64,000 nt of DNA from Candidatus Omnitrophota bacterium (GTDB lineage: Bacteria > Omnitrophota > Omnitrophia > Omnitrophales > Aquincolibacteriaceae). The position numbers were made by a program, and so were the translations under genes. Every line of letters starts with the position of its first letter. Position 1 is the stretch's first letter. The stretch covers positions 2,593 through 66,592 of the forward strand of contig JBDRCT010000005.1 in NCBI GenBank assembly GCA_043821445.1, given 5' to 3'. The notes under the pieces are model-generated. The model did no database searches, was not told the DNA's origin, and was given only the letters and a program-made list of their open reading frames with translations. Of this stretch, positions 34,032 through 64,000 are shown in pieces.

Positions 34032-34496
34032 CTACCGCTTCAAACTTCCGCTCTCGTCATACACCTTGGGCATTCCCTCAACCTTTCCGCCCCTAAAAAC
34101 CCCCTCGCTTTCCAATTGCCCGTTTTCATAATAAGACCTATAGGGCCCTTCCGGTTTTCCATTCTGGAAAACGACCTCGAACTTCAACTGGCCGTTCTCA
34201 TAATAATCCCGCGACAATCCCTCATGTTCACCGTTCTTGAAAACCGCTTCGCCTTTGAGTTTCCCGTTCGCATAGTACCACCGGGACAGCCCTTCACGCT
34301 TTCCGTCCCGGTAAATTTCCTCGTCTTTCAATTGCCCGTTCGCATAATATTCTCGGTACGGCCCGTCCGGAACTTCGCAGCCCCAAAAACTGAATAGAAA
34401 CATCGAGATCAAAGCCGTTCCGACCCATCCGTTAAAGAAAGTTCCCGTTTTAATATTCACCCCCGCAACCCCCTCTTGTTCTCTTTCGTCTGTCAT
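34032..34496 (-). CDS. MORN-repeat (YwqK-like) protein with an N-terminal TM/signal segment
   Basis: Repeated YYxNGQLK..G motifs are present (YYANGQLKDEEIYRDGKREG, YYANGKLKGEAVFKNGEHEG, YYENGQLKFEVVFQNGKPEG, YYENGQLESEGVFRGGKVEG). The ATG at 34496 overlaps the upstream gene's stop as ATGA. Confidence 0.65.
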   Translation of the reverse strand: MTDEREQEGVAGVNIKTGTFFNGWVGTALISMFLFSFWGCEVPDGPYREYYANGQLKDEEIYRDGKREGLSRWYYANGKLKGEAVFKNGEHEGLSRDYYENGQLKFEVVFQNGKPEGPYRSYYENGQLESEGVFRGGKVEGMPKVYDESGSLKR

Positions 34497-34930
34497 CGGA
34501 ATTGTTCTTTGACTTTGGCGCGCGTGAAAAAAATAATAAAAAGGGCCGGAACGAGATTGAAAACGACCGAATAAAACACGATCGCGGGCGCGTGTTCCGC
34601 GACGCTTCCGCCCCCGCTCCAACGGGCGATCTCCACCGGCGCAATGCAGAACCCCCCGAGGATGGAAAGCCCCTGAACATAAATGAATATTTTACGGGCT
34701 ATTTCTCGCAAGAAAAATAAAAATATTCCTAATAAGACGAGGAGCACGGCCAAGATGATACTGAGAGGCTCCCCCATGATTATAAGCGTCGTGTTCATAA
34801 AAAAACAGGAAAGCGCCAAGAGGATGGGCGCTTTGACCCCCCAGTGAAAGCCCGCGATATAATCCAGAGTGATGAGATTGATCGCGATGAAATAGAGGGA
34901 TAGCACCGCTATGCCTCTAGACCTTTTCAT
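34493..34930 (-). CDS. small integral membrane protein (4 TM)
   Basis: I chose the internal start MKRSRGIAVLSLYF at 34930; the ORF-track 5' extension overlaps the upstream gene. It is translationally coupled to the MORN gene. Confidence 0.45.
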   Translation of the reverse strand: MKRSRGIAVLSLYFIAINLITLDYIAGFHWGVKAPILLALSCFFMNTTLIIMGEPLSIILAVLLVLLGIFLFFLREIARKIFIYVQGLSILGGFCIAPVEIARWSGGGSVAEHAPAIVFYSVVFNLVPALFIIFFTRAKVKEQFR

Positions 34931-48900: not shown

Positions 48901-49115
48901 GCACCGGAGTCTTTGGGCAATTCTTTCTTTTTTTCCAGAAGATCTATGAGATCCATAAGTTCCACCAGGCTGATTTTCGGAGGGGCTCCCGAGGCCTCCC
49001 CCTTGAGTGCGTCGCATCGCTTGGCATAATAGCTGGTCAAAGTATCTGCGACCGCATTTGAAAGACGTCCGCTCTTCACCAGTTTTTGGATCTGTTCCTC
49101 AAAAGAACTTGTCAT
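45993..49115 (-). CDS. giant cytoplasmic coiled-coil protein with internal near-identical repeats
   Basis: The 1040-aa protein is almost entirely Glu/Lys/Arg/Leu/Ala heptad coiled coil. A super-repeat of about 200 aa occurs three times. There is no signal peptide. Confidence 0.7.
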   Translation of the reverse strand: MTSSFEEQIQKLVKSGRLSNAVADTLTSYYAKRCDALKGEASGAPPKISLVELMDLIDLLEKKKELPKDSGASQAPPPSKVYSLGSPSQFLHENKDEYLTSGVDKAGFEKKRLEARIEELRKKCEGLEEDLAAEKRAHVEAYKTKPAYEENKKKALEKENALLIDVIKRIRGDGEKAGKRAAELETEVRIARAQIQSFEEKAHALTSLEEIRARLEKDLGTKEEESENLKARLREFEEASEESHDRIRSLEDEKEQLSRELETKVAEEARLWEEIRGLETKRAEREASTVELTEKHRMAVEAHEKHRLALEEEKSQLEGEKKSLRIELSEKAKALAKREEVKVRLEKDLEGAHRDSGVLSSEKERLEREKEALLRAGEEKARALAEAEEVKARLEKDLEGAHRGSGVLSSEKECLEREKEALLRAGEEKARALAEAEEAKARLEKDLGVKKEESETLKARIREFEETSEKSHGLIQSLKDEKEQLSKELETKVAEEARLREEIRGLEAKRAESEVSAAELTEKHRMAVEAHEKQRLALEGEKSRLEGEKKSLETELSEKAKALTEAEEAKARFEKDLDTKEEESETLKTRILEFEKASEEGRAIITALEDDKKQLEDKRHQLEKDLGTKEEESEVLKTRLRESREILEKSRAVVVALGDDKKHFENEKHSLEKALGAKEEESEILKARILEFEKASEEGRGLTQSLENEKKQLSGELETKAAEEARLREEIRGWEAKCAEKEAEVKARETNAAELTEKHRMELEAREKQRLALEEEKSRLESGRESLRIELSAKGEEAVQLGYKLREAEKTLEELRGKIQGLEKDLEGANHDSEVLRSEKDRLWRDKEALVKAGEERAKAVVSLEDDKKRLEHERHNLERDLARLEEEKLSLGKNLEDRLSELVASEQEKESLAGKIEKKKEEIENALAKIKDLDEALAQAEVQTRDVRRQCDGLEDEKEQIMREKDEKIRILEALTKTIQEKEKLLNEKGIAQKTLEEKLEEEKRAHMKVQARARHLEATLLTLEKKIEELISPRDPNP
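47778..48071. repeat. tandem direct repeat (2 x 147 nt, about 93% identical) inside the coiled-coil CDS
   Basis: ATCCTTCTCAAGACGGGCCTTC recurs at 47778, 47925 and 48072. It encodes the 49-aa unit LEKDLEGAHRDSGVLSSEKERLEREKEALLRAGEEKARALAEAEEVKAR. Confidence 0.85.
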
Positions 49116-49309: not shown

Positions 49310-50488
49310 CTAGGGTGTTTTCCGGAAAGATTCCAAGTAATGCTTAACCACAAGGCACTTCTCTTCATGCTCGCGGATGATCGCTTCGATGAGCATGTCG
49401 CGGGCTTCCTCCGTCAAATTTTCGGGGCCGACAGGTTCCTCGCCTATCATTTTAGACACATCATTGGTCCTTGAGAAGATCGCCCTTGCCCATTCCCGCT
49501 CGTCACACTTACCAAGCAGATACAGAGCCGTCATCACAAACTGGCCCCCGTTGAGACTGCCCAGGTTCACAAGCGCTGCTTTTTGGGGGCCCGTAAAACC
49601 GGAAACGATCTCCTGAAACAGGTCGATAATTTTCCTCCAGTCTTCGCCCGTATACCGGTCCCAGGCATTAAGAGAGAACCCATGCTGCTGTAAAAATAGT
49701 TTTGCCTTATTTTGTTGCATTTCTTGATAGAGTGAGGAAATGGGGTACCCGGCCGCAGGCTCAAAAATAGGGTCCGCGCGCAACCAACCCGGGAGATTTT
49801 GAGAAAGGTCACCCCCTTTATCCATAAGATCCATCTCCGAAGAGGCCAAAAGATACGCGCTGAAAGTGTGGGGCTGAATGATCACCCCATTCTCAATAAG
49901 CAAGTCTCCCTGCTCTTTGAAATCGGCTACGATCCTCTCAAACAATGCTTTGCTTTCCGACTCGATCACATGGCCGTGAACACTCTTGATGAGCTCCTCA
50001 CCGACCTGCAGACAATATTTGCTTTCCCGGCTGATCAACTTCGCATCTTTGAGCGATACCGCTTTCAAAAGCCCCGCCCTGATCATTTCTTGCAGAACTT
50101 TCTGGCGATGGTCCAGCGCGGTCCGCATGCCGGGGTCCATTTGGAGCGCCGCGTCAAAACACTTGAGCGCATCCTTGAACTTTCCGTTCGTCAACAACAC
50201 GGAGCCCTGATCGACCAGTGCGCGCTTACGTAAGAAATTGCAGTACAATGCTTCTTCGTAACATTCGAAAGCCTTGCTCGGTTTTCCAAGCCTGTCGTGA
50301 CAACGGCCCAGATTCACCCAGGCCTCTTCATTATCGCCGTGGATCGCTAACGCCCTTTCATAACATGACTTAGCCTTCCCCCAAGCCTTGTATTTTATAA
50401 ACTCAAGAGCTTCTTTCATGAATTTTTCGCATGCGCACCCTGATTCCTCATGCATAGACATCCTCCCTTCTAAAAGTTCAGATCTCAT
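49310..50488 (-). CDS. TPR-repeat protein with an uncharacterised C-terminal domain
   Basis: The N-terminus carries TPR motifs (AWVNLGRCHDRLGKPSKAFECYEEAL). The C-terminal 200 aa match no family I recognise. Confidence 0.55.
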   Translation of the reverse strand: MRSELLEGRMSMHEESGCACEKFMKEALEFIKYKAWGKAKSCYERALAIHGDNEEAWVNLGRCHDRLGKPSKAFECYEEALYCNFLRKRALVDQGSVLLTNGKFKDALKCFDAALQMDPGMRTALDHRQKVLQEMIRAGLLKAVSLKDAKLISRESKYCLQVGEELIKSVHGHVIESESKALFERIVADFKEQGDLLIENGVIIQPHTFSAYLLASSEMDLMDKGGDLSQNLPGWLRADPIFEPAAGYPISSLYQEMQQNKAKLFLQQHGFSLNAWDRYTGEDWRKIIDLFQEIVSGFTGPQKAALVNLGSLNGGQFVMTALYLLGKCDEREWARAIFSRTNDVSKMIGEEPVGPENLTEEARDMLIEAIIREHEEKCLVVKHYLESFRKTP

Positions 50489-51731: not shown

Positions 51732-52697
51732 CTAAGATGATTGAATTTTTTCATAAAGTTGTGCGGCTAAATCTTTGTTGAGATTATTTAATATTGCGTA
51801 CTGTTTTAACGCAGAGTCTTTCTTATGAAGAGATAAATGTGCCATTCCAAGATTGTAATAGGCCATAGCATTCCGAGCATCCAGGGAGAGGGCCTTGTCA
51901 AAAAGCTCGATCGCTTTTTGGGCATCATCTTTCTGGAGGTAGACATTACCCAAACCGGCGTAAGCATTAGAATCCTTGTCGTTCAAGGAGACGGCCTTGT
52001 CAAAAGACTCGATCGCTTTTTGGGCATCACCTTTCCGGAGGTAGGCATTCCCCAAACTGGCGTAAACATTGGAATCCTTGGCGTTCAAGGAGACGGCCTT
52101 GTTAAAAGACTCGATGGCTTTGTCGGCATTGCCTTGGCTGGAATAGATATTACCCAAACCGACATAACTATAGAGATCCTGTGGATTCAGGGAGAGGGCC
52201 TTGTTATAAGACTCGATCGCTTGATCGGCATTGCCTTGGCTGAAATAGATATTGCCCAAACCGACGTAAGCACTGGAATCTTCGGCAGCCAAGGAGATGG
52301 CTTTGTTATAACACTCGATCGCTTTATCGAGATTGCCTTTTCGGAAATAGAGATTACCTAAACCGCCGTAAGCATAGAGATTTTCCGGATCCAGGGAAAT
52401 GGCCTTGTCAAAAGACTCGATCGCTTTGTCGAGATCGCCTCTCCTGGAATAGAGATTACCCAGATCGACGTAAGCAAAGAGACTCTCCGGGTCCAGGGAA
52501 ATGGCCTCATGGAAGGATTCGATCGCTTTATCGCTGTCGCCCTTTGCCGCCTCTTCCCTCCCCGCGATAATACACTGGTCTGCCGTGACAACATTTTCTG
52601 CATCGGCTGCATAACTGCTTGGATGACTACAAATAAAAAATACTATGGGGGCCAAAAATACTAGGTTTATGGGTCTAAAAAACGAGTGTTTTTTCAT
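51732..52697 (-). CDS. secreted TPR-repeat protein (paralog 1)
   Basis: The protein has an MKKHSFFRPINLVFLAPIVFFICSHPSSYAA signal peptide and about 7 TPR units (AYVDLGNLYSRRGDLDKAIESFDKAISLDP...). Its C-terminus is conserved with the paralogs at 62154 and 62732. Confidence 0.75.
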   Translation of the reverse strand: MKKHSFFRPINLVFLAPIVFFICSHPSSYAADAENVVTADQCIIAGREEAAKGDSDKAIESFHEAISLDPESLFAYVDLGNLYSRRGDLDKAIESFDKAISLDPENLYAYGGLGNLYFRKGNLDKAIECYNKAISLAAEDSSAYVGLGNIYFSQGNADQAIESYNKALSLNPQDLYSYVGLGNIYSSQGNADKAIESFNKAVSLNAKDSNVYASLGNAYLRKGDAQKAIESFDKAVSLNDKDSNAYAGLGNVYLQKDDAQKAIELFDKALSLDARNAMAYYNLGMAHLSLHKKDSALKQYAILNNLNKDLAAQLYEKIQSS

Positions 52698-52782
52698 GGT
52701 TGATCCCTCGCCTAAGTGGTCTGTTGCCGAAGCGAAATTGCCTGTTTGTTCTCGCTCTCTTCCGTAAACGATTGGACGGGAC

Positions 52783-52811
52783 AGTATTAAGCGCTTTCTT
52801 TGCTGCCACAA
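52783..52811 (-). promoter_or_regulatory. sigma70-like promoter (-35 TTGTGG, 17-nt spacer, -10 TAATAC) conserved with the paralog at 63391..63419
   Basis: On the minus strand the sequence reads TTGTGG-N17-TAATAC. The identical architecture sits upstream of TPR paralog 3, and about 120 nt of the 5'-UTR downstream is conserved. Confidence 0.5.
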
Positions 52812-52951: not shown

Positions 52952-54817
52952 TTAATCGCCATAACCGCTACTGTTTAGTAATGATTCGGAGAGCCTCTCT
53001 TGATAGCCCGAATAGGCGCATGCTTTATAATACTTTGAATTCAATCCTTCAATGAGGTTCAGCCCGGTACCCTCCAGGTTTTCTTCGGCGATGTTCTCTC
53101 CCATGCCTTGATAGAAATATCCCTTGTACCGTTCATCTACATAATTTCCTATAAGTTTATCCGCGCCCGGGAAGTCATAACCCTGTCCAAAACCCTCCCA
53201 AAAATATCTCAGCATCTCTTCGTCTTTCTCATGAATGCTCTGGAGTGCAAACAAATAGGGTTCCATCCCGATATCAAATCCATCGATGCCCGCCTTGTGG
53301 TACAGGCGAAGAGCCATCTGGTGGGCTATCCCTCGCCCCAGACCTTTGAAACAGTGGAACCTGTCTTCCCGGCTAAAAGAAAATTCCTTGAGAAATTCCT
53401 CGACCCTGGCGACCATGGTTTTATCTGCATTATAATCATGAACCATACCCCATCCAAATCCTTGTAAAAAAAATTTCCTTTTGGAAAAATCAATGTTTTT
53501 TATCTGCTCTACAATTTGAGCGTAATGAAAATTCGAAGCGCCTATCTTCTCTCCCAACATCCGGTAAGAATAACCTTTATAAATGAACCCTTGGCCGATT
53601 TTCCCAAATGAAATGGACGTAATATTTTCATAAAGACCCGCCAACAAAATGGCGCCCCACACCGTTATGAATAATCCCTTGATGAGCCACTGCCTTGTTT
53701 GCATAAGCCTCTGGGATCCTAACGCAACGATCGCAAAAATAAATGGATAAAGAGGCACGATATACCCTGCGTTCTGCCACCCGGGCCATACCGTATATGA
53801 ACTTAAGATATAACACGGGAAAAAAACAAGCGGGAAAAGCAGAATGATGCTTTCTCGAGACAAAGGTTTTTCTTTTCCGATCTTTAAAGGAATTGCCAGT
53901 TTAAGGAGCGCATAGCGATTCATCCACAGCAGATACAAGAAACACACGGAGAAGAAGGCGTAATATAAATACTCCGGATATGACGGTAAGCGTTCGAAAT
54001 TAAACAGGCGAAGCAGATCTTTGGTGAGAAAATTTTTTGCCTTTAAAATAATATGAGAGAAAGACATCCCTTGAAAATTAACAGCTTGATAAAAAAATGT
54101 CACAAATCTGGTCCGGCCGCTACCGAGATCCACTGCGGACTCAAAATAAATTCTTGGGCTAAACCCTATGAAAGCAAATATCAGGAACAGGTAAAATTTG
54201 AGACTGAATATAAATTTCCTGTCAAAGGCGAACCAGAATATGAACAGAGTCAGCAGGGTTACACCGCAAAGATAAGAATAAAAAAACCCGAAGCCGGAAA
54301 TTAAGCCCAGCAGTATGAAATAAATATTTTTCTTTTTATGATCAAAAAAAATAAGGTAAGCCATAAACAGGATCGCTGCCGTAAAAAGACTTGACTCCGG
54401 ATGCGAGCCGATAGAAAGAACGGAACATTTTGTATATACGGTAGGGGAAAAGATAAATAACAGACTTGCGAGTATGGCTACCGATCGATTAAAGAACCTC
54501 TTTAATAACAGGTACCATAATACAAGCACTCCCAGCGAAAACAGGATGGGTACTATTTTTGCCGAGGCCCCAGAGGGACCCCATAGCAGGAAAAAAGGGA
54601 CCATGAGGATGCCATTCACTACAGAACCAAAATTATGATCATCCGGAAATAAGTTTTGAAACGGTAGAGAAGGCCCCTGGATCAACTCCATAGCAATGGT
54701 GCCGGGAAAAAATTCATTGGCATCATAAATGGCATCTCGTTGCGAAGAGACCAAAAAAAGCCTCAACGCAACAAAGAGGACTGCAAGGGCTGCTAATACG
54801 ATCTTATCTTTTTTCAT
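52952..54817 (-). CDS. GT-C fold polyprenyl-phosphate-sugar-dependent glycosyltransferase (ArnT/PMT, GT39/GT83-like) with a C-terminal soluble domain
   Basis: The 621-aa protein has about 11 transmembrane helices, with an N-terminal profile typical of ArnT-like enzymes. Its C-terminal 200 aa are hydrophilic. Confidence 0.6.
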   Translation of the reverse strand: MKKDKIVLAALAVLFVALRLFLVSSQRDAIYDANEFFPGTIAMELIQGPSLPFQNLFPDDHNFGSVVNGILMVPFFLLWGPSGASAKIVPILFSLGVLVLWYLLLKRFFNRSVAILASLLFIFSPTVYTKCSVLSIGSHPESSLFTAAILFMAYLIFFDHKKKNIYFILLGLISGFGFFYSYLCGVTLLTLFIFWFAFDRKFIFSLKFYLFLIFAFIGFSPRIYFESAVDLGSGRTRFVTFFYQAVNFQGMSFSHIILKAKNFLTKDLLRLFNFERLPSYPEYLYYAFFSVCFLYLLWMNRYALLKLAIPLKIGKEKPLSRESIILLFPLVFFPCYILSSYTVWPGWQNAGYIVPLYPFIFAIVALGSQRLMQTRQWLIKGLFITVWGAILLAGLYENITSISFGKIGQGFIYKGYSYRMLGEKIGASNFHYAQIVEQIKNIDFSKRKFFLQGFGWGMVHDYNADKTMVARVEEFLKEFSFSREDRFHCFKGLGRGIAHQMALRLYHKAGIDGFDIGMEPYLFALQSIHEKDEEMLRYFWEGFGQGYDFPGADKLIGNYVDERYKGYFYQGMGENIAEENLEGTGLNLIEGLNSKYYKACAYSGYQERLSESLLNSSGYGD

Positions 54818-54853
54818 CTTCGCACCAGAAATGTGGCCCTATCCCGTAAGAGA

Positions 54854-56533
54854 TTAAACATTTTCTTCAAACTTTTTCTTTTCATAGATCGAAATTTCAC
54901 CCCAGGGTGTCTCCAAAGTTTTTAGCTTCTCAAATCGAGAGATATTGGCATCAAAAATATCGAGGATCTTATCGATAAAGCTGCCTTTCGGCTTCACTTT
55001 ACGCCGGATGACATAATCCGCGCCTAGTACCATGTGCTGAAGCTCTTGGTCCGAAAATAATATTTTCCAGTTAGCCTCATCCGGATATAAGCCTATAACA
55101 GCGATGGGAAGATTACCCGTGAGGATCTTGTCCTCCATGGCATTATGAATAACTGTTCCTTGGAAATTGACATCTAAAACTTTTATAAAATCGTTTGTCC
55201 ACTGACGAGAGCACTCCCCTATCAGTTGGCTGATCTCATTATTGATAAATTTCCAACCCCATTCTTCATCCGAATTCCCGCGCTTTTCAAATGTCGACAT
55301 GAGTTCATCCAGGGCCCAATCGCCGTTCCCGGCTTGCAATAACCCTTTAGAAGTCACGTCCCCCAAAAGCTGGGCCACATCTATCCCCCCCATGGGCTTA
55401 GGGTTATACGAGATTAAAAAGTATTGAGATGTGAGAAAAAATAAAAAAACCATTAATAGATATTTGCCTATTTTAAGCCTGGACAGCCATTCCATGCCGA
55501 CAGAAGATATAAGAGCCACGGGGGCCAATAAAGAAACTGCAAGCCGAGAAAGACCTTGCAATGCCAACATGGAAACAAGAATGAGCGTGAACACGAACCA
55601 CATGAGAAGAAAATAGATCTTGGGTCTTTTGTTCTTTTCAAAAAAAGAAATGCCCAGCGCCAGAATAAATAGAGACACAAAAAACCAACCCAGATATTCC
55701 ATCATTAACATCCGCAGAAAATGGGGCGAATTAAAAACGACCGATGAAAGAGCCGGCCATGATGACCATAATTTCTGCCCCCTAAGGTATCCAGAAATCT
55801 TGTCCATGGAATACCACGGAAAGAGAAGGAGGCACGAAAGAACGACCGAGGAAAAGGTATTGATCGCCATCTTTGTTGCTGAGATATGCGCCGGGACCTC
55901 TGCTCGCCTAAAAAAAAGGGCGATGTTCTTGATCGCGTAAAAAAGGACGGGGATTATAATATAAACGACAAACCGGGGCCTTATGAGCTCGCCCAGAGCG
56001 AATGCGAAACCGAAACATAAAGAATATTTAAAATTTTTAAATCCCCCGGACTTGATCAGCAGGTACACACACGCCGTCGAGATCGCCAAGACGGGGACTT
56101 CCAACATATACACTCTCGAAAAACCGACCACCCCGGGATAGAACGAAATAAGGAACGCCGCTAAAAGTCCTGTCCTGCGGTTAAATAAAAGTTTGCCGAG
56201 CCCGAACATGCTGAGGATGAGAATAAGAAAGAACGATTGGTTCGCTAAAATAGCAACGTCCTGGCTCACTCCAAAAAAAGAAAGAAAAGGGATCGCCACA
56301 AGAGCGAGGAGTTCTCCGCCAAGCCCCACACCCAGGATAGGAGTGAGCAGAGAAAGATCTCCGCCTTTGACAATAGCCATCCATGTTTCCTCATACTTAA
56401 AACTCAATTGGTAATAAACGGAGGCATCGCCTACGAAAGGCATCGTATCCCGGAAAATGATCACCATGTTGTTGATGACATGAAATGCAAAAAGTGACAA
56501 CAGGGCTATCCACACGAGAGGGTCTTTTTTCAT
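54854..56533 (-). CDS. GT-C fold polyprenyl-phosphate-sugar-dependent glycosyltransferase (ArnT/PMT-like), paralog
   Basis: The 559-aa protein has about 11 transmembrane helices and a C-terminal periplasmic domain. It is translationally coupled (ATGA) to the upstream GT2 gene. Confidence 0.6.
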   Translation of the reverse strand: MKKDPLVWIALLSLFAFHVINNMVIIFRDTMPFVGDASVYYQLSFKYEETWMAIVKGGDLSLLTPILGVGLGGELLALVAIPFLSFFGVSQDVAILANQSFFLILILSMFGLGKLLFNRRTGLLAAFLISFYPGVVGFSRVYMLEVPVLAISTACVYLLIKSGGFKNFKYSLCFGFAFALGELIRPRFVVYIIIPVLFYAIKNIALFFRRAEVPAHISATKMAINTFSSVVLSCLLLFPWYSMDKISGYLRGQKLWSSWPALSSVVFNSPHFLRMLMMEYLGWFFVSLFILALGISFFEKNKRPKIYFLLMWFVFTLILVSMLALQGLSRLAVSLLAPVALISSVGMEWLSRLKIGKYLLMVFLFFLTSQYFLISYNPKPMGGIDVAQLLGDVTSKGLLQAGNGDWALDELMSTFEKRGNSDEEWGWKFINNEISQLIGECSRQWTNDFIKVLDVNFQGTVIHNAMEDKILTGNLPIAVIGLYPDEANWKILFSDQELQHMVLGADYVIRRKVKPKGSFIDKILDIFDANISRFEKLKTLETPWGEISIYEKKKFEENV

Positions 56534-57216
56534 CTTCGCATCAGGAATCTTGCCATATCCCGGAAGAGATTGAACATTTTCTTCAAGTTCAGGAATTGGG
56601 AACGGCCATACCGCCTTGGGAAATGGCTGACCAAGACCTCTTTTAGCTTAACTCCGTTTCTCACGAGCCTGATCACCATTTCTGCCGGAGCAAAACCGCT
56701 GTCGGAGCGGATCCTGATCCGGTCCATCGCTTCTTTTCTGATGAGCCTGAAATCGCAGTTGATGTAAGTGAGGGTTTTACCGAATAAGCCATCCAAACAG
56801 AGCTGATACATCTTGCTCACGAGGACCCTGTAAAAGGCATCCTGACGTTTTAAGATGTAGCCATTGATAAGGTCGTACTCTTCCGCGTAAGGCAACAACC
56901 GAGTCATTTCCTTGATGTCATATTGCCCGTCTCCATCGGTATAGAACACCCATTTCTTGGTCGCGTGCGCAAATCCGCTTTTTAGCACCCCCCCATAATC
57001 TCTGTTTTCTGCGTGCCGGACCCACCGGACCCTTTTGTGGCTCTCCGCAAGTTTCCGGGCTATCTCCCCCGTCTCATCCCAACTGCAGTCATCGATGATG
57101 ATGATCTCGTAATCCAAGCCCAACGGATCCAGGACCGAGATCGCGTCCAGGACCAATGGCTTGATCGTTCTGCCATCGTTATAGGCCGGTAAAAAAACAG
57201 AGATCTCTTTGATCAT
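56530..57216 (-). CDS. family-2 glycosyltransferase, polyprenyl-phosphate sugar transferase (ArnC/GtrB/DPM1-like)
   Basis: The 228-aa protein has VFLPAYND ... IIIIDDCSWDET ... YTDGDGQ motifs. Confidence 0.8.
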   Translation of the reverse strand: MIKEISVFLPAYNDGRTIKPLVLDAISVLDPLGLDYEIIIIDDCSWDETGEIARKLAESHKRVRWVRHAENRDYGGVLKSGFAHATKKWVFYTDGDGQYDIKEMTRLLPYAEEYDLINGYILKRQDAFYRVLVSKMYQLCLDGLFGKTLTYINCDFRLIRKEAMDRIRIRSDSGFAPAEMVIRLVRNGVKLKEVLVSHFPRRYGRSQFLNLKKMFNLFRDMARFLMRR

Positions 57217-57263
57217 AAGACCGATCGCTTGGCGATCTCGCTCCCCCTAAAAGAGACATCCTA

Positions 57264-58700
57264 TCAGGACAGACCGGACAGGAACCTGAGCCCGTCCCAA
57301 TAGCGTTTAACATCCTCGCTTGTTCTTATTTTCTTCAAATGCTTCAAAAAATATCCGGGCCGGAGATAAAATTTTCTATAGGCCTTCCGGATCATGGCTT
57401 CCACTTCTCCCGCGTTCTTATAACCGGCGGGCACATAGGTGACCGAGGGAAGGTACCGGGTCTCGCACATTTTTTCTGAATAGGCCGGCACGATCACTTT
57501 ACCTTCCCTCAGACATTGCTCGTAGAGAGGAGTCCCCCTGAAGGGATGTGTCGGGATAAAAGCAGCGTAGGTACAATCTAACTCGATCGCGAACCGGATG
57601 GTCTCTTCCGCCTTTTCCGGAGTCTCGCCGGGTAAAGCCAGCATAAACGCCCCGATGACCTCCAATCCCAGGCCATTCGCCAAAGCGGCGGCTCGCCTGC
57701 TCTGTTCCAGCGTAATTCCTTTTTTGATGTTGTTGAGCAGATCCTGGTTGCCCGACTCAAAACCGAAACTAACGCTGACGCAACCTGTTTCCTTGGCCCG
57801 TTTTAAGATCGGCTCATCAATGTGATTGACCCTTGCGCGGAAGGACCAGCTAAGGTTGAGTTTTTCACGGTCCAAGGCGTCGCAAAAATTTGTCAGCCAT
57901 CCCTGATGGGCCGCGAGATCATCATCGTAGAATATGAATTCCTTCATCCCGAATTCCCGGACCAGGCCCTTGATCTCCTCCAGGGTTTTGGCAACACTTT
58001 GTATCCTGGGCTCCCTTTTCAAGATCCCCGACCGGTAGCAAAAGGTGCATTGGGCATAAGCACATCCGCGGGAAACAATGATGTTGGTCGACGGCAACTT
58101 TTTATTCTCAAAAGGCTCCGGGATATAAGCCTCCATGGGATAAAGATGCCGGGCGGGAAACGGCAGAGCCTCCAAATCGATCGGCCTGTCGTCGGGAGGG
58201 GTTTCCAGGATCTGACCTCTTTCGTTACGGTAATAAATGCCCTTCACTTCCGGCCAAGTCCGCCTGGATTCCAAACAGGACATGATGCCGAGTACGGCAT
58301 GCTCGCCTTCGCCCGCCACTAAGACGTCGATCCCGCTGCACTTTTCCATCGTTTCCCTCGGAAAGCAAGTAGGATGGGCACCGCCGACGATCACGGGGAT
58401 ATCTTTAAATCTTTGCTTGAGCCTCCGGATCAAACCGTAAGCGGAGTCTTCCTGGGGAGTCAGAAAAGAAATACCCAAGACATCCGGCCGGTAGGCATCC
58501 ACTTCGCGCAAAATTTCATCGACGGTCAGCTCCAAGACTTGCGCATCGATGATCTTGGCCTGGTGCCCGGCTTGAAGCAGCACTGCAGCAATGTAGCCGA
58601 CCCCCAAAGGAGGCAGGAAGCCGCGCTTGACATGTTTTCTACTGTTGATTCTTCCGGAATGATCCTGTGGGGCCGAGGGGATAATGAAAAGTATCTTCAA
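57264..58700 (-). CDS. B12-binding-domain radical SAM protein
   Basis: An N-terminal cobalamin-binding Rossmann domain (PVIVGGAHPT) is followed by a radical-SAM core. The cluster Cys reads RGCAYAQCTFC, a CX4CX2C spacing. Confidence 0.8.
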   Translation of the reverse strand: MKILFIIPSAPQDHSGRINSRKHVKRGFLPPLGVGYIAAVLLQAGHQAKIIDAQVLELTVDEILREVDAYRPDVLGISFLTPQEDSAYGLIRRLKQRFKDIPVIVGGAHPTCFPRETMEKCSGIDVLVAGEGEHAVLGIMSCLESRRTWPEVKGIYYRNERGQILETPPDDRPIDLEALPFPARHLYPMEAYIPEPFENKKLPSTNIIVSRGCAYAQCTFCYRSGILKREPRIQSVAKTLEEIKGLVREFGMKEFIFYDDDLAAHQGWLTNFCDALDREKLNLSWSFRARVNHIDEPILKRAKETGCVSVSFGFESGNQDLLNNIKKGITLEQSRRAAALANGLGLEVIGAFMLALPGETPEKAEETIRFAIELDCTYAAFIPTHPFRGTPLYEQCLREGKVIVPAYSEKMCETRYLPSVTYVPAGYKNAGEVEAMIRKAYRKFYLRPGYFLKHLKKIRTSEDVKRYWDGLRFLSGLS

Positions 58701-58814
58701 TATGCATGCTTTCTCTGATTGATAAAATTCCGGCGATCAAAGTAAGATTGTCAAGTATGATAGCCGAACTGAATCAATGCGAGAAGGAAAAAAAGAAAAG
58801 GATGGGATATATTC

Positions 58815-59954
58815 TTATGTCTCTTTGAAAGACCGGACCGCTTCGCACACCGTTTGGATAGCGCTTTCCGGCAATTCCGGGAACATGGGAAGACTCAGTA
58901 TTTCCATGCAAGATCTCTCTGTCGCAGTCAATCCGCCGGGAGCGATATTGGGATTCCCCTCATACGCAGGCTGCTGATGCACGGGAACGGGATAATGCAC
59001 GGCCGTATCCACGCCTAAAGTTTTCAAGTGCGCTCTCAGAAGGTCCCTTTTCTCAGACCTTACGACATACTGATGATAAACAGGGATGGAACCCGACACT
59101 TCCACCGGCAGACGCACAGAAGAAACAGCGAGCTGTTTCGAATATTCCGCGGCGATCTTCCTGCGCTTGTCATTCTCCTCGTCCAAGTAACGTAACTTGA
59201 CGCGCAGAATGGCCGCCTGCAATTCATCCAACCGGGAATTCCCGCCCGGGATATGACTGATGCGCTGTTGCTGCCAGCCATACTGCCGCAAGGATCTGAC
59301 TTCCTCCGACAGTGCTGGATCATGAGTGGTCACCATACCGCCATCCCCCAAAGCACCCAGATTTTTCGTAGGATAAAAACTAAAGGCTGCCATATCGCCC
59401 CAGGAGCCGGTCCTGCGGCCTCCCAGCATTGCACCAAGCGATTGAGCGCAATCCTCAATAACCATGAGACCATACTGACGGGCAATTTCAAGGATCGCCG
59501 GCATATCGGCCGGCTGACCGTAAAGATGGACCGGAATGACCGCTTTGGGCCGTCCCTTCGGAGCATGGGCCAACACCGTCGCCAGGTTACCCGGATCCAT
59601 GGTGTATGTGACCGGATCAATATCCACCAATACAGGAGCGGCACCCGTAAGTTCAATGGCCGCCACAGTGGCGACCGCCGTGTGGGAGACCGTAAAAACA
59701 AGATCCCCGGGGCCCACGCCGATAGCACGCAACGCCAGCTCCAAAGCATCGGTACCGTTGCCCACGCCAACGGCATGGGGAACACCCACATAAGAAGCAA
59801 ACTCTTGTTCAAAAGCTTCGACCTCTGGGCCCAAGATGTACGAACCGCTCTCCAAGACGCGATGGATCGCGGCATCGATCTCGGCTTTGTGGGCCAGATA
59901 ATTGGCCTTGGGATCGGCCTGTGGAATAACCCTCGCCGGCGTCTTCGGGTTCAT
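58815..59954 (-). CDS. DegT/DnrJ/EryC1/StrS-family PLP-dependent sugar aminotransferase (ArnB/PglE-like)
   Basis: The 379-aa protein has GVGNGTDALELAL ... SFYPTKNLGALGDGG. Confidence 0.85.
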   Translation of the reverse strand: MNPKTPARVIPQADPKANYLAHKAEIDAAIHRVLESGSYILGPEVEAFEQEFASYVGVPHAVGVGNGTDALELALRAIGVGPGDLVFTVSHTAVATVAAIELTGAAPVLVDIDPVTYTMDPGNLATVLAHAPKGRPKAVIPVHLYGQPADMPAILEIARQYGLMVIEDCAQSLGAMLGGRRTGSWGDMAAFSFYPTKNLGALGDGGMVTTHDPALSEEVRSLRQYGWQQQRISHIPGGNSRLDELQAAILRVKLRYLDEENDKRRKIAAEYSKQLAVSSVRLPVEVSGSIPVYHQYVVRSEKRDLLRAHLKTLGVDTAVHYPVPVHQQPAYEGNPNIAPGGLTATERSCMEILSLPMFPELPESAIQTVCEAVRSFKET

Positions 59955-60958
59955 TGGTAATGATCTCCATGTTCGCGAAAAAAGGCCAAGGTCCGGACCA
60001 ATCCCTCGCGTAACGGTGTTTTTGGTTCCCAGCCTAACTCGGCACGGATGTACCGATCATCTGCATAATAGTTACCGATATCGATGCGTTTACGATCGTC
60101 CGGAAATTCGCGCGTCTCAAAAGTACCCCCGCCATGGACCGCCACCAGGAGATGCGCCAGATCACGCAAATTAATGACTTCACGGCCGCCCAGATTGAAA
60201 ACCTTGCCGTTCGCTTTTTCGCTGGCAGCCGCCACAAGAAAGGCATCCACTGCATCCTCCGCATAGGTAAAATCACGCTGCTGTTCGCCGCCCCACACTT
60301 CAAACGGTTTTCCTTCGAGGACCTTTTTGATCCACAGGCCCAAAAACGTTTGACGCGCATCCTTGATCCTCATATGAGGCCCGTAGGTGTTGGTCAGACG
60401 CAGGGCGCAGGCCCGGATTCCGTACACATTGTTGTAAAGAATGTGGTACTGTTCGCCTGCCGTTTTATGGATGCCGTTGACGTCGACGGGACGCAACAGA
60501 TGTTTTTCATCCACAGGCAAATGATCGGGTTTCCCATAGATCTGGCGCGTACTTGCAAAAACGATTTTGACACCGGCATTGTACTTCCGGCAGGATTCTA
60601 GCATGGAAAGCTGCGCCCGGCAGTTGATTTCCATATCGCGCCCGGGATCCTCCATAGAATCTATGTGGCTCGTCTGCCCGGCCAGGTTAAAAAGATAATC
60701 CTGGCCCTGGATCAAGGAGTGCATGCTGTGCGCGTCGCACACATCGGAGATATTGATCTTCACCTTGTCCTCAAGCCCCTGGATATTGAACAAGTTGCCG
60801 CCGTATTCGGGAGCCAAGTTATCGACGAGCGTCACCCGGGCCCCCAATCCTACCAAGCGACGGGCCAAGTGAGAGCCGATGAACCCCAGCCCTCCGGTGA
60901 TGAGAACTTTTTGGTCGGTAAAATCCATTTTATCTTTCACCAGCGGGATGAGCGTCAC
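59951..60958 (-). CDS. NAD-dependent epimerase/dehydratase (extended SDR; UDP-sugar 4,6-dehydratase/decarboxylase-like)
   Basis: The protein has VLITGGLGFIGSHL, plus NTYGPHM and other motifs of the UXS/ArnA C-terminal domain type. By-eye alignment finds no Tyr at the expected YxxxK position (VNGIHKTAGE). It overlaps the aminotransferase gene by 4 nt. Confidence 0.75.
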   Translation of the reverse strand: MTLIPLVKDKMDFTDQKVLITGGLGFIGSHLARRLVGLGARVTLVDNLAPEYGGNLFNIQGLEDKVKINISDVCDAHSMHSLIQGQDYLFNLAGQTSHIDSMEDPGRDMEINCRAQLSMLESCRKYNAGVKIVFASTRQIYGKPDHLPVDEKHLLRPVDVNGIHKTAGEQYHILYNNVYGIRACALRLTNTYGPHMRIKDARQTFLGLWIKKVLEGKPFEVWGGEQQRDFTYAEDAVDAFLVAAASEKANGKVFNLGGREVINLRDLAHLLVAVHGGGTFETREFPDDRKRIDIGNYYADDRYIRAELGWEPKTPLREGLVRTLAFFREHGDHYQ

Positions 60959-60996
60959 TCCTCCGCCGGGTTGCCGTCATTTTATTCCGATCCGGA

Positions 60997-61296
60997 TCAT
61001 GAGGGCTGAGCGGTCCGTTTCCTCGGTGGAAAGAACGTCACCCTGATCCACCCCCAGTTCAGGAAGATATGCCCCGCGGCGAGCGTGATCAGTAACAGGC
61101 CGTTATATTCATGGATTCCAAAAAGAAGGTCCTTGTTCAGTACTTTTACTTCCGAGAAGATCATGAGCGCCGTGACGGCCTGGACAAGAATGGAAAGAGA
61201 GAGGGGCAAATTCACAAAACGCAACATTTCGTTTTTGTTCATAACGATCCTTCCGTTGTGTGTTTCATTCGCGGCCCCGCGTATAAGCCGATCCAT
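60997..61296 (-). CDS. small membrane protein (about 2 TM), start uncertain
   Basis: The 99-aa ORF contains hydrophobic segments (LPLSLSILVQAVTALMIF, LLLITLAAGHIFLNWGWI). It lies 38 nt upstream of the SDR gene. Confidence 0.3.
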   Translation of the reverse strand: MDRLIRGAANETHNGRIVMNKNEMLRFVNLPLSLSILVQAVTALMIFSEVKVLNKDLLFGIHEYNGLLLITLAAGHIFLNWGWIRVTFFPPRKRTAQPS

Positions 61297-61387
61297 CCCA
61301 CGCGGGCGATGTAACGTTGCACGTCTTTAAAATGAGCGCTTCTTAAAAAGGATTCTACAGTGACACTTCCAGGTTGTCCACCCGCAG

Positions 61388-62153: not shown

Positions 62154-62612
62154 TTAAGAGGATTGGATTCTTTTATAAAGCTCCTTGGCTAAATTTTTGT
62201 TTAAACCGCTTAATATTTTGTGTTGTTTTAACGCAGCATCCTTATCGCCTTTCTGGAGATAGAGGTCACCCAAACCGACGTAAGCATTAGGATCCTTGGC
62301 GTTCAAAGAGATGGCCTTGTTGAAAGATTCGATCGCTTTATCGATATTGCCTTTCTGGGCATAGAGGTGACCCAAACCGATAATAGCATTGAGATTCTGC
62401 GCGTCCAGGGAGGCGGCCTTGTTATAAAACTCGATCGCTTTATCGACGTCGCCCTTCTTCACCGCTTCATTACCAGCTATAATACAATCGTTTGAGTCTT
62501 CAATACACCCGTTTGAGCCTGCAGCATAACTGCTTGGATGATTGCAAACAAAAAACGTTGCTTGAACTAAAAACACCAGGCTTACTAATCTAAAAAAGAA
62601 ATCTCTTCTCAT
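62154..62612 (-). CDS. secreted TPR-repeat protein (paralog 2, short)
   Basis: The N-terminal leader FFVCNHPSSYAA and the C-terminus AALKQHKILSGLNKNLAKELYKRIQSS are shared with the paralogs. Confidence 0.7.
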   Translation of the reverse strand: MRRDFFFRLVSLVFLVQATFFVCNHPSSYAAGSNGCIEDSNDCIIAGNEAVKKGDVDKAIEFYNKAASLDAQNLNAIIGLGHLYAQKGNIDKAIESFNKAISLNAKDPNAYVGLGDLYLQKGDKDAALKQHKILSGLNKNLAKELYKRIQSS

Positions 62613-62731
62613 TTTTGATCTCTCTCATGAGTTATTTGTTACCGAAGCGAAACTGCCTAACGGTTGTTCCCTCACTCAGCGGATGGTTCGACAGCAGGTT
62701 GCCCTCCCTGAGGGCGCCTATTTTGGTACGC

Positions 62732-63304
62732 CTACTGTGGCTTTGGGCTAAAGGCTTGAATTCTTTTATCAAGTTGCTCGGCTAATTTTTTGTCTAAATC
62801 ACTTAATATTTTGTGTTGTTTTAACGCAGCGTCCTTATCGCCTTTCTGGATATAGAGATGACCCAAACTGGAGTGAGCCTGGGGATCCTTGGGATCCAGG
62901 GAGATGGCCTTGTTGAAAGAATCGATCGCTTTATCGATATTGCCTTTCTGGAGATAGAGGTTACCCAAACCGATATAAGCATAGAGACTCTTCGAATTCA
63001 GGGAGATGGCCTTGTTAAAAGACTCGAGCGCTTTATCGGCATCGCCTTTCTGAAAATAGGCATTACCCAAACCGACATAAACACTGAGATTCTTCGGATC
63101 CAGGGAGACGGCCTTGTTAAAAGACTCGAGCGCTTTATCGACGTCATTCTTTTGCATCGCTTCCGCGCCGTCCTTAACACACTGTTCTGCTGTTGCAATA
63201 TTTTCTGCGTCTGTGGCATAACTGCTTGGATGACTACAAATAAAAAACACTGCCAGGGCCAAAAATACCAGGCTCGTTGATCTGAAAAAGGATTGTTTTC
63301 TCAT
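62732..63304 (-). CDS. secreted TPR-repeat protein (paralog 3)
   Basis: The signal peptide ends FFICSHPSSYATDAEN. There are four TPR units, and the C-terminus is shared with the paralogs. Confidence 0.7.
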   Translation of the reverse strand: MRKQSFFRSTSLVFLALAVFFICSHPSSYATDAENIATAEQCVKDGAEAMQKNDVDKALESFNKAVSLDPKNLSVYVGLGNAYFQKGDADKALESFNKAISLNSKSLYAYIGLGNLYLQKGNIDKAIDSFNKAISLDPKDPQAHSSLGHLYIQKGDKDAALKQHKILSDLDKKLAEQLDKRIQAFSPKPQ

Positions 63305-63390
63305 TTTTAATCCCTCGCCTAAGTTGTTTGTTGCCAAAGCAAAATAATCAGCTTGTTCTTCCCCTTTTCAAGGGACAGCTTTTTGGGATA

Positions 63391-63419: not shown

Positions 63420-63481
63420 TACTTTTTCTCCGTCTCATTCCGGCTGCTCCGCCCAGTCGTTGAATGGTACCCGGGGACCGT

Positions 63482-64000
63482 TTAACTTTCCAACGCCTTG
63501 CGGGCAAGGTTGCGCACGGAAAAGAACAGGACAACGGTGGCGATCAACCCCAGGATGAGAAGCGCCCATTCCGCCGGCATCCTGGGCCGCACCCCGGAAT
63601 GGAACAAAGAGAGGTCCCCCGTCAAGGCCCCTAAATAGGTGCAGACCATCACGGAAGGGACTGTCCCGGTCATGGAAGCGGCCCCGTACTGCCAGGCCGG
63701 GATCCGCGTCGTCCCGAAGGTGTAATTGGCGATCGAGAACGGGAAGACCGGGGACAACCGCGCCAGTAGAACGATCTTCCATCCTTTTTGATCCAAGGCC
63801 CCGGAAAACTTCTTTAAGGAAGCGTTCCCGGCAAGCGCCCTCTCGACCCACCGCCGGGCCAGATAACGGCCGATCCAAAAAGCGGCCACAGACCCGAGAC
63901 CGTTCCCCAGCACGCTCAGGGCCGTCCCCCTCCAAAATCCGAAAAGCATGCCCCCGGAAAAAGTAAAAATACTGAACGGCACGAAAAAAAGACAGGCGAG
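63482..64000 (-). CDS. DedA / TVP38-TMEM64 family membrane protein, running off the window end so the N-terminal part is missing
   Basis: The ORF is open to the window end and reads GTTRIPAWQYGAASMTGTVPSVMVCTYLGALTG ... LLARLSPVFPFSIANYTFG. Confidence 0.7.
   Translation of the reverse strand, partial: LACLFFVPFSIFTFSGGMLFGFWRGTALSVLGNGLGSVAAFWIGRYLARRWVERALAGNASLKKFSGALDQKGWKIVLLARLSPVFPFSIANYTFGTTRIPAWQYGAASMTGTVPSVMVCTYLGALTGDLSLFHSGVRPRMPAEWALLILGLIATVVLFFSVRNLARKALES

Follow-up and report, generated by a model that had tools for sequence, protein, structure and literature searches.

The DNA analysed here, referred to as the window, is a stretch of 64,000 nucleotides from a Candidatus Omnitrophota bacterium (GenBank assembly GCA_043821445.1, contig JBDRCT010000005.1, positions 2,593 to 66,592 of the forward strand). 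Between positions 52952 and 61296 of the window lie seven co-oriented open reading frames (ORFs) on the minus strand, among them a B12-domain radical S-adenosylmethionine (SAM) enzyme, a sugar aminotransferase and several glycosyltransferases. In our judgement the cluster probably encodes a system of several components for transmembrane glycosylation, of the three-component type, in a diderm member of the Omnitrophota, built from two modules. The ORF calls reproduced the gene order and coordinates listed in a first-pass annotation of the sequence, and Pfam assigned the families named there, with DUF4405 just below its cut-off. In transcription order the genes are as follows.

60997 to 61296, minus strand: small membrane protein, DUF4405-like, first gene of the run (Pfam DUF4405 25.7 bits, under the 26.7 cut-off)

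59951 to 60958, minus strand: protein with the extended fold of short-chain dehydrogenases/reductases (SDR), in which Asn replaces the catalytic Tyr (NGIHK) and TRQ replaces TDE/TSE (Pfam Epimerase 177 bits)

58815 to 59954, minus strand: DegT-family pyridoxal phosphate-dependent sugar aminotransferase, predicted C3 type, with a 4-bp ATGA overlap with the SDR stop (Pfam DegT 374 bits)

57264 to 58700, minus strand: class-B radical SAM enzyme, B12-binding domain at the N-terminus, TTG start (Pfam B12-binding, PF02310, 91 bits; Radical_SAM, PF04055, 78 bits)

56530 to 57216, minus strand: short family 2 glycosyltransferase (GT2) of the GT-A fold, 228 aa, with a DGD motif and no transmembrane helices (Pfam Glycos_transf_2 87 bits)

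54854 to 56533, minus strand: GT-C1, a GT39/83-like (PMT_2) membrane glycosyltransferase, its start overlapping the GT2 stop (ATGA, 4 bp) (Pfam PMT_2 34 bits, PMT 22.5 bits)

52952 to 54817, minus strand: GT-C2, a PMT_2 membrane glycosyltransferase (Pfam PMT_2 40 bits)

The genes had been described as tightly coupled by ATGA overlaps, which holds for two of the six junctions (SDR/DegT and GT2/GT-C1); the remaining four are gaps of 36, 38, 47 and 114 bp. The domain scan covered the window ORFs longer than 100 aa except those at 669-1295, 34032-34622 and 63435-63982. Among the scanned ORFs no formyltransferase or deformylase (Polysacc_deac_1) domain was found, in agreement with the first-pass annotation, which had reported both as lacking.

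The radical SAM gene encodes a full-length class-B enzyme of an uncharacterised family. It had been pointed out as novel in such a cluster, and it is indeed an unusual and uncharacterised member. The radical SAM cluster motif is C213-x4-C218-x2-C221 and its three cysteines are invariant in 79 sequences; this CX4CX2C spacing departs from the usual CX3CX2C, which is also that of true HpnJ. The best named NCBIfam match is HpnJ, which covers the full length with 201 bits against a cut-off of 578, and BchE reaches 179 bits against a cut-off of 481. A genuine cyanobacterial HpnJ from Calothrix scores 798 bits on the HpnJ model and is about 30% identical to the window enzyme. The assignment as HpnJ or BchE proper was rejected, as the scores are far under the cut-offs and the gene context is wrong. 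The AlphaFold2 model of the enzyme, built from the 79-sequence alignment, has a pLDDT of 90 and a pTM of 0.89, and Foldseek superposed it over its whole length on TsrM, OxsB, AprD4, MgmA, CysS and TokK with TM-scores of about 0.7. C-methylation is the commonest reaction of class-B radical SAM enzymes. The best PDB sequence match is AprD4 (E = 5e-20), restricted to residues 175-400, and AprD4 and ArsL share the architecture of these enzymes without binding B12 (PMC12931638).

The short GT2 downstream of the radical SAM gene contains no hydrophobic segments. Its best named NCBIfam match is ArnC (82 bits, cut-off 529), followed by PgfS (57 bits), and its PDB matches, ArnC (E = 2.7e-21), GtrB (3.6e-8) and DPMS (3.3e-7), are all polyprenyl-phosphate glycosyltransferases. 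The match spans residues 7-226 of ArnC, i.e., the soluble and juxtamembrane part, and stops before the transmembrane helices. From these homologies it is predicted that the GT2 transfers a sugar to polyprenyl phosphate. A soluble GT-A enzyme acting at the membrane together with a separate membrane protein has a precedent in GacI/GacJ (PMC8035078).

Comparison of gene neighbourhoods was based on radical SAM orthologues with at least 49% identity from metagenome-assembled genomes of Omnitrophota and Deltaproteobacteria, which gave 14 loci whose flanks could be used. In 13 of them (the window, L005, L085, L086, L012, L001, L088, L006, L008, L090, L014, L092 and L103) the radical SAM gene adjoins a short GT2 of 228-247 aa, L087 being the locus without it. 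These GT2s are 40-86% identical in the close orthologues and 25-28% in L092 and L103. An SDR of the window family, likewise without the Tyr (47-87% identical, NGI[NH]K conserved), adjoins in 10 loci and a GT-C1-type gene in seven, the common order being GT-C, radical SAM, GT2, SDR; a second GT-C occurs in some loci. A DegT gene is confined to the nearest relatives of the window, L005, L085, L007 and L086. Of these, L005 and L085 show the window arrangement SDR-DegT-radical SAM-GT2, and in L007 SDR, DegT and radical SAM follow one another as far as the contig reaches. L005 is the locus with the closest synteny; its radical SAM enzyme is 86%, its GalE 91% and its tetratricopeptide repeat (TPR) protein 55% identical. 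There the TPR gene and then galE follow directly after the GT2, and neither the DUF4405 gene nor the two GT-C genes are present. More distant homologues with 40-44% identity keep the GT2 and add a class-I methyltransferase (L003, L169, L168 and L170). Among these, L003 belongs to Acidobacteriota, L168 to Nanoarchaeia and L169 to Elusimicrobia, where a PMT_2 GT-C gene overlaps the radical SAM gene, while L170 encodes two small EamA proteins that are ArnE/F-like. The constant partner of the radical SAM family is thus a GT2 of the carrier-loading type and not the sugar-nucleotide enzymes.

In two places, L001/L002 (1-8103) and L006 (80-8107), six or seven radical SAM genes lie directly upstream of the GT-C/radical SAM/GT2/SDR module; these are mostly of the SPASM type and one has TPR matches. 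Homologues of the window enzyme with 36-40% identity also occur in tandem arrays of five to eight B12-domain radical SAM paralogues each (L004/L011 from Deltaproteobacteria CP070770, L100, L105 and L106), with no glycosyltransferase near.

The constancy of the GT2 bears on where the radical SAM enzyme would act. The first-pass annotation had placed it inside the sugar-nucleotide segment, where it would methylate a nucleoside diphosphate (NDP)-aminosugar at C or N, or rearrange it, before the GT2 loads this sugar onto the lipid. In the window the gene indeed stands ahead of the GT2 in the order SDR-DegT-radical SAM-GT2, and GenK, GenD1 and AprD4, the last being the best PDB match, act on soluble glycosides (PMC12931638). 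The comparative context, in contrast, ties the enzyme to the GT2 and often to a GT-C, while the sugar-nucleotide enzymes vary between SDR alone, SDR with DegT, and methyltransferase; the common orthologue order of GT-C, radical SAM, GT2 and SDR likewise speaks against a soluble step. The closest named relative, HpnJ, works on a lipid-linked sugar, acting after the glycosyltransferase HpnI on lipid-linked glucosamine (PMC13459092). Because the GT2 is the constant partner, and as HpnJ likewise acts after HpnI, the radical SAM step is placed at or after lipid loading, and action on the soluble sugar nucleotide is considered unlikely, although it is the most serious of the alternatives.

The second unusual protein of the cluster is the SDR, which probably starts at M11, at position 60928, giving 325 aa and matching its homologues. 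The suspicion that it lacks the Tyr of the YxxxK motif was borne out, as its NGIHK aligns with YGIAK of the GalE-type enzyme PDB 4zrm, so that the catalytic Tyr is replaced by Asn whereas Thr and Lys of the catalytic triad are retained. The GxxGxxG NAD-binding motif is intact (GGLGFIGS) and conserved, as is the Asp that ends beta-2. All 120 best homologues (71-88% identity) have Asn at the Tyr site and carry D-V-N-G-I-N/H-K and F-A-S-T-R-Q-I-Y-G. Among the 150 best representatives of 50%-identity clusters, Asn is found in about 125 and Tyr in only 16, the latter at 36-41% identity; these nearest Tyr-containing relatives are likewise uncharacterised and give no hint of the substrate. The change from Tyr to Asn is not a defect but the rule in a very large conserved family. 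The best solved relative of the SDR scores 134 bits, and every match to the curated NCBIfam models is far under its cut-off (ArnA model 44 bits, cut-off 777). In the literature search no precedent for a nucleotide-sugar SDR without the Tyr was found.

4,6-Dehydratases have Asp-Glu after the Thr, and UDP-xylose synthases and ArnA have Ser-Glu. As the window SDR has Arg-Gln at this position, its earlier labelling as "4,6-dehydratase/decarboxylase-like" is unsupported; an alignment read by eye also shows that the Glu and Arg arrangement of ArnA and UDP-xylose synthases is missing. We infer instead an oxidoreductase with a non-canonical active site that would supply a keto-sugar, because this is the only plausible role for a lone SDR ahead of an aminotransferase. 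Natural fusions of SDR and DegT exist. Other fusions among the relatives of the Tyr-less SDR are tandem SDR-SDR proteins of about 650-700 aa (P0257, P0311 and P0399) and an SDR-methyltransferase protein (P0364). In L008 (9002-9997) the radical SAM-linked SDR has both Tyr and Lys of YxxxK replaced (NGINN), with the rest well conserved.

For the DegT enzyme the strongest PDB matches are 7b0d (370 bits), DesV (2oga, 355 bits), QdtB (304 bits) and WbpE (298 bits), all about 45-50% identical, while perosamine synthase and ArnB follow with 195 and 175 bits. Against the NCBIfam ArnB model it scores 200 bits (cut-off 631). DesV, QdtB and WbpE were classed as C3 aminotransferases (bioRxiv 10.1101/2021.09.04.459008). 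The region of the Schiff-base Lys, FYPTKNLGALGDGG, reads as it does in DesV and QdtB, the two enzymes with which it was compared by eye under the C3 Lys-motif criterion of that study. The publication behind PDB 7b0d was not found in the literature search. Judged by these similarities, a 3-amino sugar is the more likely product than a 4-amino sugar, and the UDP-4-amino sugar proposed in the first-pass annotation is not supported. DesV, QdtB and WbpE obtain their 3-keto substrates from 3,4-ketoisomerases, DesII or Gfo/Idh/MocA dehydrogenases. The window DegT differs from them in that its only partner is the Tyr-less SDR.

SDR and DegT form a cassette of their own in unrelated polysaccharide clusters, L165-L167, in which an SDR with 72-74% identity is followed by a DegT with 63-64% identity, the stop codon of the first overlapping the start codon of the second; Leloir glycosyltransferases come next. 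In two of these clusters a conserved third gene follows the pair (L166 10129-11229 and L167 10126-11145); the products of 339-366 aa are 64% identical to each other, have no Pfam match and look like GT-A glycosyltransferases with a DxD-like motif, "YLDADLFFF". The self-contained nature of the cassette raises the possibility that the cluster is not one pathway, the SDR and DegT feeding a Leloir glycosyltransferase elsewhere and radical SAM, GT2 and GT-C forming a separate adjacent unit. The window SDR in fact shares 72-74% identity with the SDRs of the cassette type but 47-49% with those linked to radical SAM in L001 and L006, and the 114-bp gap ahead of the radical SAM gene contains a TTGACA box. 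Yet an SDR of the same Tyr-less family is a constant neighbour of radical SAM and GT2 even where DegT is missing, the SDR-DegT-radical SAM-GT2 order recurs in L005 and L085 and, as far as the contig reaches, without the GT2 in L007, and the terminator scan, whose counts are not above the shuffled expectation, found no terminator-like site inside the intergenic gaps of the cluster. Two separate units are a very improbable explanation. The TTGACA box (58740-58775, minus strand) has a weak match to a -10 element, and its counterpart in L005 reads CCCGCA and is not conserved.

Both GT-C proteins pass the PMT_2 cut-off of 26.1 bits. GT-C1 has about 12 hydrophobic segments followed by a soluble C-terminal domain of about 180 aa, and D29 and P32 after the first transmembrane segment are nearly invariant; GT-C2 has at least nine such segments and a soluble C-terminal domain of about 225 aa. 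PDB sequence searches gave no relative of either protein even at E = 1, and the NCBIfam models gave only a weak archaeal STT3 match and no ArnT-type model. The AlphaFold2 model of GT-C1 is poor (pLDDT 63, with only 10 sequences in the alignment), and its significant Foldseek matches are all GT-C_A enzymes, in the order STT3, AglB, ArnT, AftA and PglB. This model confirms the GT-C fold of GT-C1, with a subfamily that is not separable among STT3, ArnT and PMT; an affinity to oligosaccharyltransferases or to ArnT is therefore not claimed. The two proteins had been taken for paralogues, but BLASTP yielded E = 0.025 over 83 residues and hhalign a probability of 37% over 108 columns, so by sequence they are remote superfamily relatives and not recent paralogues. 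In L085, L086, L012, L001, L088 and L006 a GT-C1 orthologue stands next to radical SAM or GT2, overlapping the GT2 in L085. A single GT-C2 orthologue was found among the examined loci, in L012 (51-52% identity). The GC content at third codon positions (GC3) is 0.60-0.66 in the five upstream genes and 0.46-0.51 in the two GT-C genes, GT-C2 having 0.46. Since the GT-C genes are absent from L005 and differ in composition, the GT-C step is not obligatory in the module, and the GT-C pair is a variable accessory of it.

The variability of the GT-Cs and the similarity to HpnJ lead to another reading, namely a lipid head-group pathway like those of HpnJ or of the calditol synthase Cds, in which the GT2 would glycosylate a membrane lipid, the radical SAM enzyme would contract the sugar ring to a carbocycle and the GT-Cs would be recent, unrelated insertions. 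HpnJ is the best named match over the full length; L005, L008, L090 and L014 contain no GT-Cs, whose composition also differs; and in L165 the genes around the SDR-DegT cassette, for CDP-alcohol phosphatidyltransferases, a GT4 and an MMPL protein, make up a lipid context. For HpnJ and Cds a ring contraction of lipid-linked hexoses has been proposed (PMC13459092), and the HpnI/HpnK/HpnJ pathway to bacteriohopanetetrol cyclitol ether resembles the window cluster in having a B12-domain radical SAM enzyme downstream of a glycosyltransferase acting on a lipid-linked sugar. Against this, the window enzyme is only about 30% identical to true HpnJ, reaches one third of the model cut-off and lacks the CX3CX2C spacing, and no hopanoid (shc/hpn) or other lipid-synthesis genes were found among the scanned window ORFs. 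The GT2 is homologous to carrier-loading enzymes, and in seven loci and in Elusimicrobia a GT-C gene adjoins radical SAM or GT2 or overlaps one of them, which fits a donor that remains transferable. A rearrangement that forms a carbocycle would be incompatible with later transfer by a GT-C. A head-group pathway is regarded as improbable.

The first-pass annotation had called the cluster Arn-like, after the pathway (PmrHFIJKLM) that adds 4-amino-4-deoxy-L-arabinose (L-Ara4N) to lipid A. The general logic stands, as SDR and DegT are followed by a GT2 predicted to load undecaprenyl phosphate and by a GT-C for transfer, and for a true Arn-type pathway, delivering L-Ara4N or a close analogue to lipid A through a non-canonical bypass of formylation and deformylation, one can cite ArnC as the best GT2 match, the JGI annotation of GT-C1 homologues as "Ara4N transferase-like", the outer membrane indicated by TolC/RND genes, and the GT9 heptosyltransferase in the related cluster L012. 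The cluster nevertheless fails every Arn membership test run. All its proteins are under the curated orthologue cut-offs, and the ArnA, ArnB and ArnC models are missed widely (44 against 777, 200 against 631 and 82 against 529 bits), while neither GT-C matched NCBIfam beyond the archaeal STT3 model. The predicted C3 type of the DegT removes the main chemical parallel. The SDR has neither the Tyr nor the decarboxylase residues, the GT2 is without the two C-terminal transmembrane helices of ArnC, and no formyltransferase, ArnD, ArnE or ArnF was found among the scanned window ORFs. The same radical SAM-GT2 pair is present in Nanoarchaeia, and archaea make no lipid A; hence the radical SAM family is not tied to lipid A. 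An Arn pathway proper deserves hardly any credence.

The DUF4405-like gene at the head of the run probably starts at M18, near 61245, and its product has one or two hydrophobic segments. No homologue was found in any related locus, including upstream of the SDR in the syntenic L005 and L085, so this protein is not a conserved member of the module. Its role as a GacJ-like partner of the soluble GT2 was rejected as a conserved feature for the same reason.

The gene order, the families, the conserved replacement of Tyr by Asn, the affinity of the DegT to C3 enzymes and the recurring radical SAM-GT2-SDR neighbourhood are observations; from them we infer the substrates, the acceptor, the kind of radical chemistry and the sequence of the steps as follows. 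The first module would be the widespread and tightly coupled SDR-DegT cassette, in which the Tyr-less SDR would oxidise a common NDP-sugar to a keto-sugar and the DesV/QdtB/WbpE-like DegT would aminate it, most likely at C3. The second module would pair the B12 radical SAM enzyme with the short GT2, to which a GT-C may be added. Here the soluble, membrane-peripheral GT2 would load the sugar on polyprenyl phosphate and the radical SAM enzyme would tailor it at the cytoplasmic face, most probably as the lipid-linked sugar, at the pathway position that ArnD has in Arn. C-methylation is the most likely reaction, with rearrangement, deoxygenation and epimerisation as alternatives. A flippase encoded outside the cluster would then export the lipid-linked sugar, and the GT-Cs would transfer it to one or two periplasmic acceptors, which may be lipopolysaccharide (LPS), another glycan or a protein; the GT9 heptosyltransferase in L012 hints at LPS.

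Several observations weigh against parts of this scheme. The sequence of the radical SAM enzyme does not reveal cobalamin binding, and its structural neighbour AprD4 binds no B12 (PMC12931638). Nor does it separate methylation from other radical chemistry, HpnJ and BchE not being methylases. As most radical SAM-GT2-SDR modules are without DegT, the amino group cannot define the substrate of the radical SAM enzyme. The SDR, lacking the catalytic Tyr and in L008 also the Lys, may be no oxidoreductase. The GT-C genes are both missing from the closest relative, L005, and differ in codon composition (GC3) from the other genes. Within the 114 bp from DegT to the radical SAM gene there is a perfect TTGACA, co-transcription being a prediction. 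Finally, no flippase (GtrA, EamA/SMR, Wzx or MATE) was found in the cluster or among the scanned window ORFs.

A further-reaching proposal is put forward tentatively and is rather doubtful as a whole. The radical SAM enzyme could be the founding member of a widespread family, with representatives in Omnitrophota, Deltaproteobacteria, Elusimicrobia, Acidobacteriota, Patescibacteria and DPANN archaea, that tailors a polyprenyl-phosphate sugar at the cytoplasmic face, between GT2 and GT-C, by C-methylation or ring rearrangement, the product being a sugar delivered by no known three-component system, and the SDR-DegT pair could be a new two-enzyme route leading straight from a common NDP-sugar to an NDP-3-amino-3-deoxy sugar by way of an SDR 3-dehydrogenase with a non-canonical site.

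Among the known systems, the three- and multi-component glycosylation systems GtrA/B/V, CsbB-GtcA-YfhO, GacI/J/K/L and those using undecaprenyl-phosphate (undP)-pentofuranoses resemble the cluster in that a GT-A/GT2 of the polyprenyl-phosphate type adjoins a GT-C (PMC8035078, PMC11127046). The window GT-A enzyme is soluble and without transmembrane helices like GacI. The Citrobacter O2 system, which converts undP-Ribf to undP-Xylf, also has an auxiliary cytoplasmic SDR, which acts on the lipid-linked sugar before export (PMC11127046). The window cluster differs from these systems by the absence of a flippase gene, the additional aminotransferase and the two unrelated GT-Cs, and a class-B radical SAM member, conserved here, is not described for them. 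The closest analogue at the level of the operon is Pgf of Streptococcus mutans, which combines the GT-A enzyme PgfS, the epimerase PgfE and the GT-Cs PgfM1 and PgfM2 (PMC12041528), i.e., one GT-A, one SDR-fold enzyme and two GT-Cs in one operon. Its GT-Cs are of the YfhO type and not PMT_2, it has neither an aminotransferase nor a radical SAM enzyme, and PgfE is described as a 4-epimerase with no sign of an atypical SDR (PMC12041528). AprD4/AprD3, a radical SAM diol dehydratase and a reductase acting on an aminosugar, is comparable in that an NAD(P)-type oxidoreductase likewise accompanies the radical SAM enzyme; it differs in that AprD4 binds no B12 and matches part of the window enzyme, and in that the window SDR has no reductase Tyr. 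The literature search found no description of such a cluster. Of two reviews from 2026, the text of one (PMC12931638) does not contain "sugar", "glycos" or "polysaccharide", though its enzyme list includes aminoglycoside methylases such as GenK, and the text of the other, on lipid modification (PMC13459092), does not contain "polyprenyl", "undecaprenyl" or "dolichol".

The surroundings of the cluster agree with the first-pass annotation, which had reported flanking paralogues of secreted TPR proteins and galE; the TPR genes lie at 51732-52811 and 62154-63337. The features recorded outside the seven genes are as follows.

61352 to 61380, minus strand: sigma-70-like promoter match, the best in the region, TGGACA-17-TAGAAT, upstream of the first gene; a consensus match only

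51732 to 52811, minus strand: secreted TPR protein (TPR families), downstream of the cluster, with a counterpart in the syntenic L005

50631 to 51701, minus strand: true GalE (388 bits, cut-off 262), with a counterpart in the syntenic L005

Counts of promoter-like and terminator-like sites in the region are not above the shuffled expectation, and no operon boundary was obtained from the scan. Rfam and tRNA scans of the entire window gave no match, and because the Rfam scan was empty, no B12 riboswitch is present in the window. The source organism is taken to be a diderm with an outer membrane because two TolC/RND efflux operons are encoded in the window.

The secreted TPR family is locally expanded to four proteins, all on the minus strand (49310-50488, 51732-52811, 62154-62612 and 62732-63337), three of which have near-identical signal peptides ("FFICSHPSSYA") and the same C-terminal tail ("ALKQ..IL..L.K.LA..LY..IQSS"). 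In L005, where the GT-Cs are absent, the cluster is flanked by the same TPR genes. The gene for a highly charged, coiled-coil-looking protein of 1040 aa follows just downstream of TPR and galE (45993-49115, minus strand); the protein has long internal repeats and the recurring blocks "EKDLGTKEEESE.LKAR.REFEE" and "ELTEKHRMAVEAHEK.RLALE.EKS.LE". Further away, at 12080-15174 (minus strand), a synthase-type GT2 of 546 aa (Glyco_trans_2_3) overlaps by 4 bp with a PEGA-domain protein of 485 aa, and the two may be a separate exopolysaccharide synthase pair. A Memo-like and AMMECR1 fusion of 536 aa (21729-23339, plus strand) adjoins a DsbD_2 membrane protein.

Periplasmic glycosylation in which GT-C enzymes draw on polyprenyl-phosphate sugars shapes LPS, surface proteins and the polymers of the cell wall. 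To our knowledge only few tailoring steps on the lipid-linked donor have been described, namely a deformylation, catalysed by ArnD, and an epimerisation, for which DprE1/E2 or an SDR is responsible. What is new in the present cluster is the conserved class-B radical SAM member and the cassette of a Tyr-less SDR with a C3-type aminotransferase. The leads are solid and widespread, while the functions are all predictions for an uncultivated organism. A conserved B12 radical SAM partner would bring radical chemistry to the stage of the lipid-linked donor. If this is true, a function would be given to a radical SAM family that is widespread in uncultivated phyla. The family of Tyr-less SDRs is very large, highly conserved and naturally fused to aminotransferases, and it lies outside all curated models and solved structures searched. 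Its elucidation would close a gap in what is known of nucleotide-sugar enzymes, and thousands of polysaccharide clusters would then be better annotated.

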